From: a bacterium
GTDB lineage: Bacteria; Patescibacteriota; Patescibacteriia; UBA2169
DNA length: 62,712 nucleotides
NCBI GenBank assembly: GCA_002687895.1
Contig: NZBL01000017.1
Span: 1 to 62,712, forward strand
Reading direction: 5' to 3'
Part shown: piece by piece, positions 4,285 to 39,619 of the stretch
Position numbering within the stretch: position 1 is the first letter of the stretch
How the letters are laid out: every line of letters begins with the position of its first letter
Position numbers and translations under genes: made by a program
Notes under the pieces: model-generated
Told to the model about the DNA's origin: nothing
What the model saw: the letters and a program-made list of their open reading frames with translations, nothing else
Databases searched by the model: none

Positions 4285-6036
4285 TTACTGGTTTAAGCTC
4301 TTGGGATTAGCTGATAATTCTTTATTTAAATTTTGGTATTGCGCAAGATAAGTATCTAATGATTGCGTATCTCCCTGCTCTTCTGCCGCGCGTATTTGTT
4401 CACGAAGAGAAGAAAGCTTGTTGCGTACGCTGCTGGATTTGAGCCTGTTAATAATCTGTCCTATCTCCTGCTCGCGCTCCTCTTTTGTTAATGACGAGCC
4501 AAGGTCGTCTGACAGCATTATTATTTCACGCCCCAAAGCCTGTAAATCCTGCGGCAGTTCATCAATACGGCAATCATACAATTCTATCCTGCTTTTGTAA
4601 AGCTCGCGCAATTGGCTGTTTGCGAGCAAATCCTCCTCTAATGCTATATCTAACTTATCAGATGACATAAGCCCTAAAAGCCTTATTCCTGCTTGTTCTA
4701 TAATATCTTTTTTAGGCTGATTAGTGTTGTTTGATTCAGGCTGCGGTTCTTTAAAGGATGATGCGTTCTTTTTAGCTATAATTGACCTTAACATTTCCTC
4801 ATTAACATTAATGATGTTTGATAATTTCTGCAGATAATGAGTCTGCTCAATTGGATCTGGAATTCGCGCTATCCATGCCAGAATTATTCCTGCTGCCTGC
4901 TTTTTGCCTTGGGCAGAATTCATGTCATGCTGTTTTGACACTGCATTAAAAACCCAATCCATAAGTTCAACTCTGGATTCTATTGCTTTTTGCCATTCTT
5001 CAGAAGACTTTTTAATAAGATCGTCTGGATCAACTCCTTCTGGCAAACTTATGACCGAGATTGACATGTCAGCGCGCCACGCGACCTCAAGACCACGCAT
5101 AAGTGCGTCTTGGCCAGCTATGTCAGGATCAAATGCCAAAGCAATATTTTTAGTATATCTTTTTAATAATTGGATTTGCTCGCTCGTAAGCGCGGTTCCA
5201 CTTGATGCAACTACATTTGTGACGCCTGCCTCATGGCTTGATATGCAATCCATGTTTCCTTCTACAACAACCGCGAGATCTTGCTTTCTGATCTCTTGCT
5301 TGGCGCGCGACAATCCATACAGAACACTGCTTTTGTGGTAAATAGATGTTTCTGGAGTGTTGATATACTTGCCACCAATATCCTCCTCATTTAATTTACG
5401 CGCTGTAAATCCTATAACACTGCCGTGAACATCTGTAATTGGAAACATTAAGCGATTGCGAAATCTGTCATACAATCCACCTCTGTCGTTTGCTGACGCT
5501 AATCCTGCTTTTACAATCTCCTGATCCAAGTATCCACGGCTATGAAGATATGTAGTTAAGCCTTCCCATGCATCTGGGCTAAAACCCAATTGCCAAGTAC
5601 TTTGTGTTTCGCTTTTGACATTGCGCTTAGTTAAATACTCGCGAGCTTTATCCCCAGATTTTGCCTTGAGTAGTGCTTGATGATACCAGCTAGCTGATAA
5701 TCGCAGCATATCTAATAATCTGGTACGCTCTGATTCTGCTTTTGGATCTTGGCGCTCAAGTTTGACGCCTGCACGCTTTGCCAGTAGCCGAAGAGCGTCC
5801 CTAAACTCTATGCCTTCTGTTTCTTTTATAAATCCAAACACATCTCCCCCTCGCGAGCAACCAAAACAATGCCAAATCTGCTTTACAGGGCTTACAATGA
5901 AAGAAGGAGTTTTTTCCTGATGAAACGGACATGGAGCTTTCCAGCTTGTGCCTGCTTTTTTTAAACTAGGCACATATTCGCGCACAAGTTCAACAATATC
6001 AACTTGCTCCCTAATTTGGTCAGTTATTTGCGACAT
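4285..6036 (-). CDS. dnaG: DNA primase DnaG
   Basis: It has a zinc-finger and TOPRIM primase sequence ([24 protein letters not shown]; [11 protein letters not shown]). I moved the start to [15 protein letters not shown] (ATG at 6036) because the ORF-track N-terminal extension is encoded by the tRNA-Ser gene. Confidence 0.9.
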
Positions 6037-35390: not shown

Positions 35391-36680
35391 ATGTCACATT
35401 TATCTGAATTTGACCCAGAAATTTCTAATGCCATAGAAAACGAGATAAACCGCCAAAGAAACGGTTTGGAAATGATTGCTTCTGAAAATCTTGTCTCAAG
35501 AGCAGTGCTAGAAGCACTTGGCTCGCCTTTAACAAACAAATATTCAGAAGGATATCCTGGAAAGCGATACTACAGCGGAAATGAATTTATAGACAATGTA
35601 GAAAACCTGGCAATTAACCGCGCTAAGGAGCTTTTTGGCGCAGAACACGCTAATATGCAGCCGCACGCGGGCTCGCAAGCAAATATGGCGGCTTATTTCG
35701 CAATGGCTGAACCTGGTGATAAAATCATGGCAATGAATCTGGCCCATGGCGGGCATTTAACGCACGGATCTCCTGTAAACTTTTCTGGAAAGCTGTTTAA
35801 TATAGTCCCCTACGGAGTACAGCAAGATACGCATTTGATTGATATGAACGAGGTGCGGGACATTGCTTTGCGCGAAAAGCCAGTAGTGATCCTTGCTGGC
35901 CATACTGCATATCCTAGAACTTTGGATTTTGAAAAATTCAGACAAATAGCAGATGAAGTTGGCGCATATCTTATGGTGGACATGGCTCATTTCGCGGGCC
36001 TAGTAGCTGGAAAAGCTCATCCTGATCCATTTCTTTGGGCAGATGTTATAACAACAACCACGCATAAAACCTTGCGCGGACCAAGAGGTGCTGTGATATT
36101 CTCTAAAATTGAAGACAGAATACATCCAGAAGATAAAAAGAACCTTGCGAAAAAGATTGACTTCGCGATTTTTCCATTTATGCAAGGCGGTCCTCTTGAT
36201 CATGTGATAGCAGCAAAAGCTGTTGCTTTTAAAGAAGCGCTGCATCCAAGCTTTGAGCAGTACGCGGAACAGATTATTGTAAACGCGCAAGCTTTAGCTG
36301 AATCACTAATGAATAATGGAGTTGATCTTGTGTCTCGCGGAACAGATAATCATTTAGTTCTTGCTGATTTGACTAAAACAGGGCTCGCGGGCAAACAAGG
36401 AGAAACATTGCTTGATTCAGTTGGAATTTATACTAACAAAAACATGGTGCCTTTTGACCAGCGAAAGCCAATGGATCCTTCTGGCTTGCGAATCGGCACT
36501 CCAGCTTTGACTACTAGAGGGTTCACAGAAGATGAACTTAAGCAAGTTGGGGAAATGATCGCCCATACTTTGCATAACCCAAATCAAAACGACATATTAG
36601 AAGGCGTGCGCAAAAAAGTTGAGGCAATGACTCAAGCCCATCCTTTGTATGATGGATGGAGCTATGAAACGCCTGAATAG
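35391..36680 (+). CDS. glyA: Serine hydroxymethyltransferase
   Basis: [36 protein letters not shown] and the PLP-lysine region [13 protein letters not shown] are present. An extended -10 (TGATATAAT) lies at 35368-35376. Confidence 0.95.
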
Positions 36681-37741
36681 GTGTCATTGCGCCGTGCCCC
36701 GTCGGATGACCGGGGAGGAGTCCGACTACTGACGGACGACGAAGCAATCTTATCGTCGCATGATACGTTATGTATTTCATCTCTAAGCTTGTGCGTGTTT
36801 CCATGATTCAATAATCCAAGATACGACCCCACTGTTTCATTGCTTGGGTGGTTTTTGATATGCTTCATCATTCTTTGTTTTGTCGTAGTGCGTAGGATAC
36901 GGTGATCTGGAAAATGTATCCATCCAAGAAAATCTATTCCAGAAGCAAGTGTATTGATAAAAACTTTATTCGGATGCAAAGACAATTGCAATCTATCGTA
37001 TAAAAAAGACCTAATCAGATACACGCAACTTTCAAGCTGGGCACGGTTTTCTGATAATATAACAAAATCATCAGCATACCTGATATAATATTTCACACGT
37101 AGTTTATACTTCACAAACTGGTCAAATGCATTCATGTATATATTTACCAACAATTGCGACGTCAAATTGCCAAGCGGCAATCCTTTACATGGATGTGTCT
37201 CAAAACTTTCTATAATTCTGCTCAACAGCCAAAGAATTCTTTTATCTGGAATGTATTTTGTAAGGATATTCTTTAAAATTTCATGGTCAATGTTTGCAAA
37301 AAATTTTCTAATGTCGCATTTCAAAATCCAGCACGTTTTTGTATTGTTCTTGCTTGCTTTAAAAGCCATATAACGAAATCCATCAAGCGCCTTATGCGTT
37401 CCTTTGCTTATGCGACAGGAATATGAATCCGCAATAAAGATCAGGTCAAAAAACAGATATAATATTCTATAAACCGCATGATGTAATAGGCGATCACGGA
37501 CGCATGCCTTGTGTATGTTTCTTGGTTTTGGATCAGAAATCTTAAAAGCATCATATCCACCATGCATATAAGTAAAATCAGCAAGATCGTTGTGTAACGA
37601 CATAATATTGTCCATCAAATTAAAATTAAACTCGCGCACATCTTTTCTTTTTCGTTTACCTCTGATAAACTCTGTCCATGCTACTAGTAAATTATCAATG
37701 CAAATTATATCTTCAAACTTATGGCTCAATTGAATCTTCAT
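36662..37741 (-). CDS. DGR reverse transcriptase
   Basis: RT motifs include [31 protein letters not shown] (the DGR-type [LIV]GxxxSQ motif), [11 protein letters not shown] (YxDD) and GIDFLGW. There is no maturase X, endonuclease or intron RNA context. The last ~45 codons read into the GC-rich element and overlap the glyA stop by 19 bp. Confidence 0.9.
36683..36727. repeat. GC-rich hairpin element, divergent copy 2 (between glyA and the RT 3' ends)
   Basis: GTCATTGCGCCGTGCCCCGTCGGATGACCGGGGAGGAGTCCGAC shares the architecture of copies 1 and 3: a GTCAY lead, a GC-rich hairpin (here CCCCG/CGGGG) and a GGAG..TC tail. Sequence identity is much weaker. Confidence 0.4.
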
Positions 37742-38110
37742 AATAATGCTTTAGTGTACCGCCCCCCAACGGCATATATTCCGCTTATTCAAAAATTGAA
37801 AGATGCCTACAAACTATGGCAAGAATTTCTGAAACACTTTCCAAAAACAACAAAATACACGCTTGGTGAAAAAATTGATTCATCTTTTCTGGAAGCAATT
37901 GAATTTGTGTTCACTGCCAGTTACTTAAGTAAACAACAAAAGCGACCATTTGTGCAAAGAGTATCGTCTAAAATTGATTTACTCAAACTGTTTTTGCAAA
38001 TCGCCTGGGAAGTTAAATCGCTTAATAACAAAAAATATATTGCTCTCTCTGAAAAGCTAGATGAAATAGGCAGAATGCTTGGGGGATGGAACAAACAACT
38101 ATCTGAATAA
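37721..38110 (+). CDS. avd: Avd-like accessory variability determinant (four-helix-bundle, 23S rRNA IVS protein family)
   Basis: The 129-aa basic helical protein contains LIQKLKDAYKLWQEFLKHFPKTTKYTLGEKIDSSFLEAIEFV, typical of the four-helix-bundle family that includes DGR Avd. It lies between TR and RT but on the opposite strand. Confidence 0.7.
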   Translation: MAQLNLHNNALVYRPPTAYIPLIQKLKDAYKLWQEFLKHFPKTTKYTLGEKIDSSFLEAIEFVFTASYLSKQQKRPFVQRVSSKIDLLKLFLQIAWEVKSLNNKKYIALSEKLDEIGRMLGGWNKQLSE

Positions 38111-38136
38111 AAAAACTCCTCCAAAAAAAGGAGGAG
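38109..38136 (-). terminator. Hairpin plus U-run immediately 3' of TR (minus strand)
   Basis: The minus strand reads CTCCTCC-TTTTTTT-GGAGGAG followed by seven Ts. It abuts the avd stop codon on the + strand. Confidence 0.65.
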
Positions 38137-38147
38137 AATAAAGATAG

Positions 38148-38281
38148 TTGCTGAGGCAGAAAACCCACACATTACCAGGATTCCACACATTGCTAGGATT
38201 AGCATAGTTCGCGTTGAGCCACAACTCATCGTTGTCGCAATCAACGTTGAAGACGTTAGGATCGCCGTCGGAGTCGGTTTT
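38148..38281 (-). repeat. DGR template repeat (TR)
   Basis: This 134-bp repeat matches 38592-38725. All 21 differences are at + strand T, which is a minus-strand A in TR. TR reads in frame as ..DSDGDPNVFNVDCDNDELWLNANYANPSNVWNPGNVWVFCLS. Confidence 0.9.
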
Positions 38282-38534
38282 GTTTAGAACATCATCCATG
38301 CCACCATCCTTTGAATGCTCTCAGAATTGAATCGTATTTGTGATCTAAAAATCACCTAATGCCCTAAACCAAGTATCTTCATTTTTAAAAGATTAACAGA
38401 TATCACTGCAAGCAGGCGTACCAATTTGCATTCTGTATCTTGAAAATCCTAGAATCAGATGGTTCAAAGCCGTAGCCGTGAACATGCTCATCTAGCATCC
38501 AAATATATGGTAGCATATTCTGAAGAATTAAAAA

Positions 38535-38566
38535 GGGTCAAAGGAACCAAAAAGTTCCAATGACCC
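38535..38566 (-). terminator. Strong hairpin plus U-run about 20 nt after the target stop codon (terminator and/or DGR target-recognition hairpin)
   Basis: The minus strand reads GGGTCATTGGAAC-TTTTT-GGTTCCTTTGACCC followed by TTTTT. Confidence 0.6.
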
Positions 38567-38587
38567 AAACTACAAAGTGCCTGAAGA

Positions 38588-39292
38588 TTACTTGCTGAGG
38601 CAGAAAACCCACACACGACCAGGAGCCCACACAGCGCTAGGACTAGCATAGCGCGCGAAGAGCCACAACCCATCGTAGCCGCAACCAACGCCGAAGACGT
38701 AAGGAGCGCCGTCGGAGTCGGTAATTGGATTCATGGCAATACGGATCCATTCGCCTTCTGGCTGGTCCTTGTACTGCAAGCGAAGCTGGGGGCCAACTTC
38801 GGAAGGACAGAGTTCCAAACCAAGCTCTTTGGCCCGACGAAAAATCTGCTCTGTGGTTCCTCCTTCACTAAAGCCAAGTTCAGCAACTGAAACCTGGGCA
38901 AGATTGACTTTTTCTTTGGATTCAGATGCCTTGAACTTGGGCTTTCCGAGAATGTCGTTCGCCCAATCACTGGCTTTGAACCCGCCCTCTTTGAATGCGG
39001 ACCGAAAATCATCAGCCGTCCGGAGGCCGGTGCCGAGATTGACGGTTTTCCAAACTCCCCAATCGCATGGCACGGTCTTAGGCCATGCTTCCTCCTTGCG
39101 GAGAAACTTCTTTGTGGCTTCAACCCATTCTGGGTCAGCCATCTTTTCTAGGTGGTCGCAGACGGTCCCAAGAGTGCTGTCTGGGAGCGTCACAAGCTTC
39201 CTCACTGCAACACCGAGCATGTCTTTGGACATGGTCAGTCCTCCTTGTTTTTGGCTTGCCAATAACACCGCATTCTGCGGAATATCAGCCAA
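38588..39292 (-). CDS. DGR target (variable) protein
   Basis: The 234-aa ORF ends in the VR. It is visibly more GC-rich than its neighbours and has no obvious signal peptide. An alternative start is MSKDMLGV (residue 21). Confidence 0.85.
   Translation of the reverse strand: MADIPQNAVLLASQKQGGLTMSKDMLGVAVRKLVTLPDSTLGTVCDHLEKMADPEWVEATKKFLRKEEAWPKTVPCDWGVWKTVNLGTGLRTADDFRSAFKEGGFKASDWANDILGKPKFKASESKEKVNLAQVSVAELGFSEGGTTEQIFRRAKELGLELCPSEVGPQLRLQYKDQPEGEWIRIAMNPITDSDGAPYVFGVGCGYDGLWLFARYASPSAVWAPGRVWVFCLSK
38592..38725 (-). repeat. DGR variable repeat (VR)
   Basis: It forms the 3' end of CDS 38588-39292 and encodes ..DSDGAPYVFGVGCGYDGLWLFARYASPSAVWAPGRVWVFCLS. The 3'-most 24 nt are identical to TR. 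Confidence 0.9.
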
Positions 39293-39373: not shown

Positions 39374-39619
39374 ATGGACAAATGCAATTTTTGCGGAGGT
39401 GAACTCCGTACAACAACACTACAACATTTTGACTATCTGTGGCAGAATAAGACTTTTCGTTTTGAAAATGTTCCTGCGCATGTTTGTGATGCATGCGGAG
39501 AAAAATATTTTGATGCAAACATATCGCAAGCAATGAACAAAGCAGTTATTAACAAAGAAGATCCAAAACGTTTTGATAAAATCCCAGTCCTAGATTTGCA
39601 AACCTCTGTTCCTGCCTAA
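39374..39619 (+). CDS. YgiT-type (MqsA N-terminal-like) zinc-finger protein
   Basis: MDKCNFCGGELRTTTLQHFDYLWQNKTFRFENVPAHVCDACGEKYFD has CxxC...CxxC. I prefer the ATG at 39374 to the ORF-track start at 39296. Confidence 0.7.
   Translation: MDKCNFCGGELRTTTLQHFDYLWQNKTFRFENVPAHVCDACGEKYFDANISQAMNKAVINKEDPKRFDKIPVLDLQTSVPA

Follow-up and report, generated by a model that had tools for sequence, protein, structure and literature searches.

A diversity-generating retroelement of the Patescibacteria type, very probably complete and recently active in nature, on contig NZBL01000017.1

Does a reverse transcriptase (RT) gene, together with the small gene and the 134-nucleotide (nt) repeat beside it, make up a complete diversity-generating retroelement (DGR), and has such an element been at work in nature? 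This question is raised by positions 36662-39232 of contig NZBL01000017.1 (GCA_002687895.1), which is 62,712 nt long and is called the window, as a whole stretch, throughout. The original prediction, made from the sequence alone, claimed a complete DGR whose wiring and target looked nonstandard. The first of these claims was borne out: the locus has a DGR-type RT, an Avd protein, and a template repeat (TR) and variable repeat (VR) that differ only at TR adenines, with VR at the 3′ end of an open reading frame (ORF). We are nearly certain that 36662-39232 is a complete chromosomal DGR of the Patescibacteria (candidate phyla radiation, CPR) type that has recently been active in nature. It is a typical member of an already described group of Patescibacteria DGRs, not a new kind of system. 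The genes, with lengths in amino acids (aa), and the repeats are as follows; IMH stands for initiation of mutagenic homing, the sequence at the 3′ end of VR, and IMH* for its counterpart in TR.

36662-37741, minus strand: DGR reverse transcriptase, 359 aa, with YADD and LGNLTSQ motifs (Pfam RVT_1, 6e-24).
37721-38110, plus strand: avd (accessory variability determinant, 129 aa), which runs toward the TR RNA and away from the RT gene.
38148-38281, minus strand: TR, with a mutagenic core at 38172-38262 (25 adenines) and an invariant, IMH*-like 3′ segment of 24 nt at 38148-38171.
38592-38725, minus strand: VR, the last 44 codons of the target gene, with a diversified core at 38616-38706.
38588-39232, minus strand: target gene, 214 aa, with N-terminal helical residues 1-45 and a compact alpha/beta domain (58-214) that ends in VR.

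On the minus strand TR and VR align over 134 nt without a gap, and all 21 mismatches fall on TR adenines (A>G 10, A>T 6, A>C 5; hypergeometric P = 5e-16 for all 21 falling on adenine by chance). This ungapped alignment, tabulated by TR base (21/21 at adenines), reproduced exactly the repeat length, the number of mismatches, and the share of changed adenines (21/34) that had been claimed. The TR and target C-terminal peptides quoted with that claim were likewise correct, all nine AAY codons of TR being changed in VR with the third base kept. A repeat finder recovered the pair independently (offset 3 nt, 85% identity). The TR copy lies outside any target-length ORF and is noncoding. The last 24 nt of the two copies are identical and only moderately GC-rich, and this segment marks the boundary of mutagenesis. 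The window has just two copies of the 23-mer that the repeats share at their 3′ ends, and hence one VR; neither the 23-mer search nor tblastn with the target found a second VR or a target paralogue in the window. From its 16 variable codons, TR could generate ~1.1e15 DNA variants and 6.3e14 peptide variants.

The 134-nt pair thus stands as originally delimited, but its first three positions probably lie outside the homing tract. Both copies start with A, followed by AA in TR and TT in VR; the TT is fixed in all five assemblies compared below, and variation among them is confined to TR positions 20-116.

The 359-aa ORF at 36662-37741 (minus strand) has both motifs attributed to it, YADD and LGNLTSQ, the latter fitting the DGR-clade pattern [ILV]GxxxSQ. 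Its best match in the Protein Data Bank (PDB) was the RT of Bordetella phage BPP-1 (bRT, 8ub7; E = 1.4e-39, residues 10-308), and PHROGs returned phrog_1423 (6.9e-98). We considered whether the RT might belong to another class of retroelement (a group II intron maturase, a retron, or a defense-associated RT, DRT), the repeat being coincidental. The best NCBIfam model is indeed a group II intron RT (133 bits, cut-off 300), and PADLOC gave partial matches to DRT models. NCBIfam, however, has no DGR-RT model, and the RT reached no NCBIfam family cut-off. When the RT was set against other classes in PDB (group II intron, retron, Cas-linked, and DRT reverse transcriptases), all were found at E = 3.5e-15 or worse, which leaves the DGR bRT the closest structural relative by 24 orders of magnitude. 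Furthermore, Rfam showed no intron RNA domains at the gathering threshold, and an Avd gene and an adenine-specific TR/VR pair lie next to the RT. We give almost no credence to another RT class; judged by its sequence, the RT is a DGR-type reverse transcriptase.

The C-terminal residues ~325-359 of the RT form a GC-rich tail of low complexity, and relatives align only to about residue 323-336. The DNA of this tail (36662-36790, minus strand) holds two short GC hairpins (GTCCG...CGGAC and CCCCG...CGGGG), and the end of the ORF overlaps the stop of the convergent glyA gene by 19 nt. Possibly the ORF call has run on here through a terminator region.

The 129-aa gene predicted between TR and RT is real and profile-supported; its strand is the plus strand, whereas RT, TR, and target are on the minus strand. 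It matched Pfam bAvd with 57.7 bits (cut-off 40), just missed the cut-off of NCBIfam NF033474 (DivGenRetAVD, 78.8 bits against 80), and matched phrog_3206, which PHROGs annotates as 'Avd protein of DGR'.

Natural variation was assessed in the window and four public assemblies of the same organism (L001-L004), which align without gaps over 8705 nt. Only 34 columns vary, 28 of them within the 134-nt VR and 6 in the other ~8570 nt, so that VR turnover outpaces the background divergence of the strains; outside VR the flanks are 99.93% invariant. The five assemblies carry five VR alleles, the window's and four more. TR adenines account for 25 of the 28 VR columns that vary. Between TR positions 20 and 110 every one of the 25 adenines is variable, while those at TR positions 1-14 and 130-134 never vary. 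This comparison served as an approximation to the VR heterogeneity of a population, and its result agrees with the prediction that polymorphism should follow the TR adenines. TR is identical in four of the five assemblies, L001 having a single-nucleotide polymorphism at TR position 6, and all ORFs of the cassette are intact in the five. The protein data agree: the 90%-identity cluster of the target contains nine proteins (from Tara, JGI, ENA, Logan, and NCBI, including the Patescibacteria metagenome-assembled genome [MAG] GCA_030744675.1), in which residues 25-195 are invariant (two proteins are shorter at the N terminus) and every difference, making up five alleles, lies within VR. This pattern is characteristic of mutagenic retrohoming that recurs within less time than strains take to diverge.

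Could the cassette be a fossil, a once-active DGR whose VR differences are old and fixed between strains? Each assembly is a consensus, and three of the VR alleles are each common to several members of the protein cluster, as such a history would have it. Old fixed differences should not, however, be concentrated in 28 of 134 VR positions against 6 of ~8570 elsewhere, and the ORFs and TR are intact. We therefore regard a fossil as highly improbable, and recent activity as the better reading. A DGR in a Patescibacteria genome is to be expected; the value of this one is that it is an unusually clean natural example: five samplings of an 8.7-kb locus yielded five VR alleles, with no core adenine left unused.

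We next asked how the cassette compares with related loci. A target-profile search limited to one genome per species returned 79 loci, almost all labeled as Patescibacteria/Parcubacteria lineages. RT and Avd are both present in 34, and the order target/VR > TR > avd (reverse strand) > RT is found in 32 of these 34; an adenine-biased TR/VR pair of ~130-140 nt was found in 38 of the 79. The wiring, originally thought nonstandard, is TR-(avd)-RT, the published architecture B3, to which 90% of CPR DGRs are assigned (Wu et al. 2018, PMC5758913). Since the order in the window is B3 and is common to 32 of 34 relatives, the cassette is a typical member of the described group. Nor is the target unusual in lacking a known domain: DGR clade 2 is restricted to Patescibacteria, cellular, and mostly aquatic, with targets that typically have no recognizable domain (Roux et al. 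2021, PMC8144416). The window shares with the CPR DGRs of these two studies (B3 and clade 2) its host lineage (homologues and one identical protein are labeled Patescibacteria), the TR-(avd)-RT order with avd reversed, a cellular setting, an aquatic sample, and a target without a transmembrane or known domain; we found no defining difference.

The VR-bearing gene was correctly recognized as the target, but its start probably has to be moved. The mechanical ORF from TTG 39292 has 234 aa, whereas ATG 39232 is the most likely start because an AAGGAGG Shine-Dalgarno sequence lies 7 nt upstream and homologues begin with MSKDMLG. The target has more than 1000 homologues of ~200 aa, mostly in Patescibacteria, and no match in Pfam, NCBIfam, PHROGs, or PADLOC. 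By inspection, its N terminus has no hydrophobic signal-like stretch. AlphaFold with 66 homologues gave a confident model (predicted local distance difference test, pLDDT, 90.9 for the full length; pLDDT 97.5 and predicted template modeling score, pTM, 0.91 for domain 58-214), in which three N-terminal helices are followed by a beta-alpha-alpha-beta-alpha-alpha-beta4 domain, the last four strands being VR. When the full-length and domain models were compared with PDB by Foldseek, C-type lectin domains took 11 of the 14 top places, all nonsignificant (E = 0.15-0.8, template modeling [TM] score 0.3-0.47). The solved DGR variable proteins (Mtd, TvpA, and TaqVP) gave no Foldseek match to the target, the target profile found nothing meaningful among PDB sequences, and Foldseek against the viral library BFVD found nothing. 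The model resembles the C-type-lectin variable proteins of other DGRs (Mtd, TvpA, TaqVP, and archaeal AvpA) in that VR makes up the strands and loops at the C terminus of a compact alpha/beta domain and in an order of secondary structures like that of C-type lectin domains. It differs from them in having no significant structural or sequence match (E = 0.15 or worse) and no FGE-sulfatase or DUF1566 signature. On the predicted structure, the target is likely a divergent C-type-lectin-like scaffold.

The target gene also stands out in composition. Outside VR (38726-39232, minus strand) its G+C content is 52.5%, against 40% in its surroundings in the window. The same portion of the target is ~13 points GC-richer in 78 of the 79 related loci (55% vs. 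42%), where the RT has 38%; RT and avd are both AT-rich (35-38% G+C).

The interval between VR and TR is nearly constant in length among relatives (~310-410 nt) and can be aligned across the clade once past the target terminator and a TGnTAnAAT box. We compared cis elements in 39 related loci, and the leader upstream of TR in 37 loci by RNAalifold. The elements in the window are as follows.

38505-38515, minus strand: promoter-like extended -10 box TGCTACCAT, a conserved column block directly upstream of the leader (clade consensus TGnTAnAAT).
38282-38499, minus strand: structured leader of the TR RNA, with helices P1 (38499-38452) and P2 (38443-38397).
38282-38369, minus strand: leader helices P3-P5, P3 (38369-38358 with 38293-38282) enclosing P4 (38355-38340) and P5 (38327-38306).
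~38367-38386, minus strand: invariant single strand AAAAATGAAGATACTTGG of the leader, from the alignment across related loci.
38137-38147, minus strand: linker CTATCTTTATT between TR and the following hairpin (clade consensus CTCTCTTCATTT, 11-12 nt), the 3′ strand of a long-range helix with the leader.
38109-38136, minus strand: hairpin CTCCTCC-T7-GGAGGAG (38136-38116) followed by T7 (38115-38109), from a terminator scan.
38535-38566, minus strand: interrupted hairpin GGGTCA..GGAACC/GGTTCC..TGACCC with T5, starting 26 nt after VR.

Covariation supports the structure of the leader. Five helices with 53 base pairs were called, and 43 of the pairs have compensatory changes. Standard pairs form in 97.4% of cells, against 38-49% when the partners are slid by 1-3 columns, and the covariation score is 0.62 against 0.13-0.15 in controls, a value reached by none of 500 shuffles. 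In the window itself, 49 of the 53 predicted pairs form. The invariant strand AAAAATGAAGATACTTGG contains AAATGAAGA, the complement of the post-TR linker, and the two form a 9-bp long-range helix (38376-38384 with 38136-38144) that is paired in 94% of cases, whereas slid controls reach 46-58%. Four of its pairs have compensatory changes, and in four sequences G-C has been exchanged for A-U. Part of the leader, the motif GATACTTGG (38367-38386, minus strand), resembles ACTTGG/CTTGG in internal loops of the post-VR hairpin of relatives (window 38535-38590, minus strand). This resemblance could reflect chance, a shared protein-binding motif, or RNA-DNA recognition.

Both hairpins are conserved as well. 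RNAalifold on raw MAFFT alignments under-called them because their loop lengths vary, and they were scored instead by per-sequence hairpin detection and folding. The hairpin after TR (ΔG = -12.4 kcal/mol, z = -3.97) is terminator-like by scan, and 36 of the 39 loci have a hairpin and T-run at the same distance after TR, with at least six T in a 9-nt tail. The stems differ in sequence yet remain complementary (CTCTCCC/GGGAGAG, ACCCGTC/GACGGGT, and CCACCC/GGGTGG, as against CTCCTCC/GGAGGAG in the window). We read this hairpin and T-run as a putative intrinsic terminator of the TR RNA. The post-VR hairpin (ΔG = -20.6 kcal/mol, z = -3.15) has counterparts in 37 of 39 loci, each with 10 or more pairs and no farther than 65 nt from the end of VR (median z = -2.1), usually as a three-tier interrupted hairpin with T-rich internal loops. 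By analogy it likely corresponds to the hairpin/cruciform that BPP-1 requires downstream of IMH (summarized in PMC5758913), and it probably also terminates the target gene. Since the last 24 nt of TR and VR are identical, the post-VR flank is the obvious mark by which VR would be known as the recipient.

These elements imply, as far as conserved sequence can tell, that TR is embedded in a self-contained RNA of ~400 nt, composed of the leader P1-P5, TR, the leader-paired linker, and the 3′ hairpin; the -10 box is the inferred candidate for its promoter. Rfam has no family for the TR RNA: searches of the window at the gathering threshold, and of 38050-38620 at E up to 10, returned only tRNAs and chance matches. 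By eye, there was no convincing complementarity between the 3′ U-run or hairpin and the 3′ end of TR that would suggest a priming site.

The RNA structure bears on a further explanation, in which the diversity of VR comes from ordinary diversifying selection or recombination on a surface protein and the repeat, a partial duplicate of the gene that has decayed, has nothing to do with the RT. Three VR substitutions at non-adenine positions fit this explanation, as do 33 target loci that have at least 3 kb of downstream flank and no adjacent RT. Selection or recombination would not be expected to place every one of the 21 window mismatches, and 25 of the 28 columns that vary, at TR adenines, nor would a decaying duplicate be essentially invariant, free of a target-length ORF, and set within a covarying RNA structure. 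The linkage of RT, Avd, TR, and VR, moreover, recurs in 32 loci. We consider this explanation next to impossible and retain mutagenic retrohoming.

The best-studied comparison is the DGR of BPP-1 (mtd-VR, avd, TR, brt). The window RT is homologous to bRT (E = 1.4e-39), and an Avd homologue is present. The 134-nt TR, the adenine-only change from TR to VR, and the position of VR at the target C terminus are shared, as are an invariant 3′ segment common to TR and VR and a hairpin downstream of VR. At the RNA level, both have a stem-loop just 3′ of TR and a duplex that joins RNA upstream of TR to RNA downstream of it. In BPP-1, RNA from both sides of TR envelops bRT-Avd; TR is followed at once by a stem-loop that binds Avd, and the other elements are a primer strand, a 'cPRT Stop' duplex of upstream with downstream sequence, a Thumb Ring, and a bRT-binding stem, all within a 140-nt spacer (Handa et al.). 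It is plausible, by analogy, that the post-TR hairpin and the leader-linker duplex of the window are counterparts of two of these, the Avd-binding stem-loop and the upstream/downstream duplex.

The differences are equally clear. The window is arranged as target > TR > (avd reversed) > RT. Since avd does not precede TR, the RNA 5′ of TR is a dedicated noncoding leader of ~220 nt, not avd coding sequence. The RNA 3′ of TR is ~45 nt plus terminator, in place of a 140-nt spacer. The IMH-like and IMH*-like segments of the window are identical, the element is chromosomal in a cell and not in a phage, and its target is a protein of ~200 aa without a recognizable tail-fiber or other domain. BPP-1 being the only DGR studied structurally, the short RNA 3′ of TR makes cDNA priming in B3-type DGRs a testable question.

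Several observations count against our interpretation of the locus as a complete and recently active DGR. Of the VR columns that vary, three of 28 correspond to TR positions other than adenine (T59, T81, and G116); low-level non-A changes have also been found in other DGRs (Wu et al. 2018, PMC5758913). Activity is deduced from differences between assemblies, each of them a consensus. TR and VR end in the same 24 nt, which are not markedly GC-rich, and the BPP-1-type sequence difference between IMH and IMH* is therefore missing; in some DGRs, too, the two do not differ (Wu et al. 2018, PMC5758913). The RNA after TR, at only ~45 nt, is too short for the spacer elements of BPP-1, which means that the BPP-1 priming mechanism cannot simply be transferred; with so little RNA before the terminator, the remaining RNA functions must lie in the leader or be organized differently. 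Finally, the structural matches of the target are weak (Foldseek E = 0.15-0.8, TM 0.3-0.47) and do not establish a C-type-lectin fold.

The three non-adenine columns (59, 81, and 116) correspond to window positions 38667, 38645, and 38610. The changes are T>C and T>G in L001 and G>T in L003, and the G>T at column 116 lies 6 nt past the last mutable adenine.

How the cassette might work can be outlined as follows; the ends of the transcript, the binding of RT and Avd to the RNA, the mode of priming, the integration step, and the role of the target are all points that we infer. A noncoding RNA of ~400 nt would be transcribed on the minus strand, from the -10 box near 38510 to the terminator hairpin and U-run at 38109-38136. 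It would consist of the ~220-nt leader P1-P5, the 134-nt TR, the 11- to 12-nt linker pairing to the invariant A-rich strand of the leader, and the 3′ hairpin. RT and Avd, expressed from divergent genes with overlapping starts, would bind this RNA and reverse-transcribe TR, placing random bases opposite adenines. The cDNA would then replace the homologous VR at the 3′ end of the target gene, VR being told from TR by its hairpin-bearing 3′ flank. As a result, 16 codons (25 adenines) would be diversified on one face of a small, probably lectin-like, ligand-binding domain. With a 2.6-kb cassette, a 214-aa target, and an RNA of ~400 nt, the system is a compact candidate for reconstitution, and a secondary structure for a CPR-type TR RNA at the level of covariation provides a testable RNA model.

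The divergent RT and avd genes meet in an unusual junction, in which two further features were recognized.

37721-37741, both strands: antisense overlap of the RT and avd starts, 21 nt, ATGAAGATTCAATTGAGCCAT.
37762-37767, plus strand: C6 homopolymer (Pro-Pro) at the avd 5′ end, equivalent to a G6 run 20 nt upstream of the RT ATG.

Read directly, ATGAAGATTCAATTGAGCCAT contains the first seven codons of both genes, those of RT (MKIQLSH) on the minus strand and those of avd (MAQLNLH) on the plus strand. The 21-nt ATG...CAT overlap is retained in 18 of 35 related loci, many of them divergent, and the variant ATGAAAATTCAATTGAGCCAT was found in 44 further metagenome contigs. Because the starts overlap in antisense, the promoter and leader of each gene must lie inside the other.

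The C6 tract of the window is in frame, invariant in the five assemblies, and one of only two G/C runs of at least 6 nt in the 62.7-kb window. In 29 of 35 related loci, the RT ATG is preceded at 7-40 nt by a G-run of 6-13 nt in the RT sense (a C-run in avd, Pro-Pro-Pro); within the junction-bearing set the homopolymer is present in 45 of 48 loci, and its length is 8-13 nt in most relatives. Such runs are rare: the related loci, 678 kb in total, contain only 39 G/C runs of at least 7 nt. In the six informative cases, one of them the window, where the run is missing or has just 6 nt, the overlapping ATG always shares the reading frame of the Avd domain; this indicates that the overlapping ATG is the real avd start. 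Among nonduplicate loci with longer runs, 9 are in frame, 19 need a +1 shift, and 2 need +2 (19 vs. 2: binomial P ~ 2e-4, an optimistic value since the loci are related); several of these loci lack a canonical start in frame downstream of the preceding stop. Tract length differs between near-identical contigs that show no further indel over ~1 kb (C8 vs. C9, C9 vs. C11, C9 vs. C7, and C13 vs. C11); in five other lineages, near-identical contigs showed no difference in run length.

The avd homopolymer invites comparison with phase-variable poly-G/C contingency loci (Campylobacter, Neisseria, and Bordetella fim). It is likewise a tract of 8-13 nt at the 5′ end of a gene, in otherwise AT-rich DGR relatives, occurring in in-frame and out-of-frame states and differing in length between otherwise identical contigs. 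The out-of-frame states of relatives are, however, biased (+1 in 19, +2 in 2), which fits programmed recoding as well as random slippage, and the window has only a short C6 tract, which is in frame and does not vary. The observations may be explained by slipped-strand phase variation, by programmed +1 recoding or slippage in transcription, or by errors in assembling homopolymers. A literature search for DGRs with 'homopolymeric' returned nothing relevant.

We tentatively propose, while holding it somewhat doubtful, that CPR-type (B3) DGRs have an RNA architecture permuted relative to BPP-1 and an extra layer of control through gating of avd. The permuted RNA may be a free-standing, terminator-bounded TR RNA gene whose protein-binding and positioning elements lie mainly in the ~220-nt upstream leader. 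As for the gating, the poly-C tract of most members puts the Avd domain +1 to the conserved start, and slippage may gate hypermutation, either by DNA phase variation or by transcriptional or translational recoding; the window may then be a constitutively in-frame C6 variant. If functional, the avd homopolymer would be an on/off switch layered on a hypermutation engine. Leader structure, post-TR terminator, overlapping starts, and avd homopolymer were not found in the CPR-DGR literature that we compared, which did not cover Paul et al. 2017. The structure of the TR RNA, its short 3′ flank, and the frameshifting avd homopolymer of relatives are by-products of this analysis that may be worth an experiment.

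A zinc-ribbon ORF at 39374-39619 (plus strand; YgiT/MqsA type, TIGR03831, 7e-12) is divergent from the target. It is absent from all 79 related loci and is, therefore, not part of the DGR.

The related loci also vary in their content. The 33 target loci without RT or Avd (e.g., L005-L007 and L010-L018) are about half of those with at least 3 kb of downstream flank, and may be orphan targets or targets served in trans. The output of a trans-target comparison was swamped by cross-clade TR homology, and the only same-MAG pair read (L081 TR vs. L016) was not adenine-specific (18 A and 16 non-A mismatches); we therefore make no claim of trans-targeting. Some relatives have a duplicated TR, or two targets or VRs per TR (L008, L068, L043, L071, and L072). 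The duplicated coordinates are 5815-5948 and 6296-6429 in L008 and 1449-1584 and 1972-2107 in L068, and L071 has two complete cassettes. The window, with its single target, represents the minimal form.

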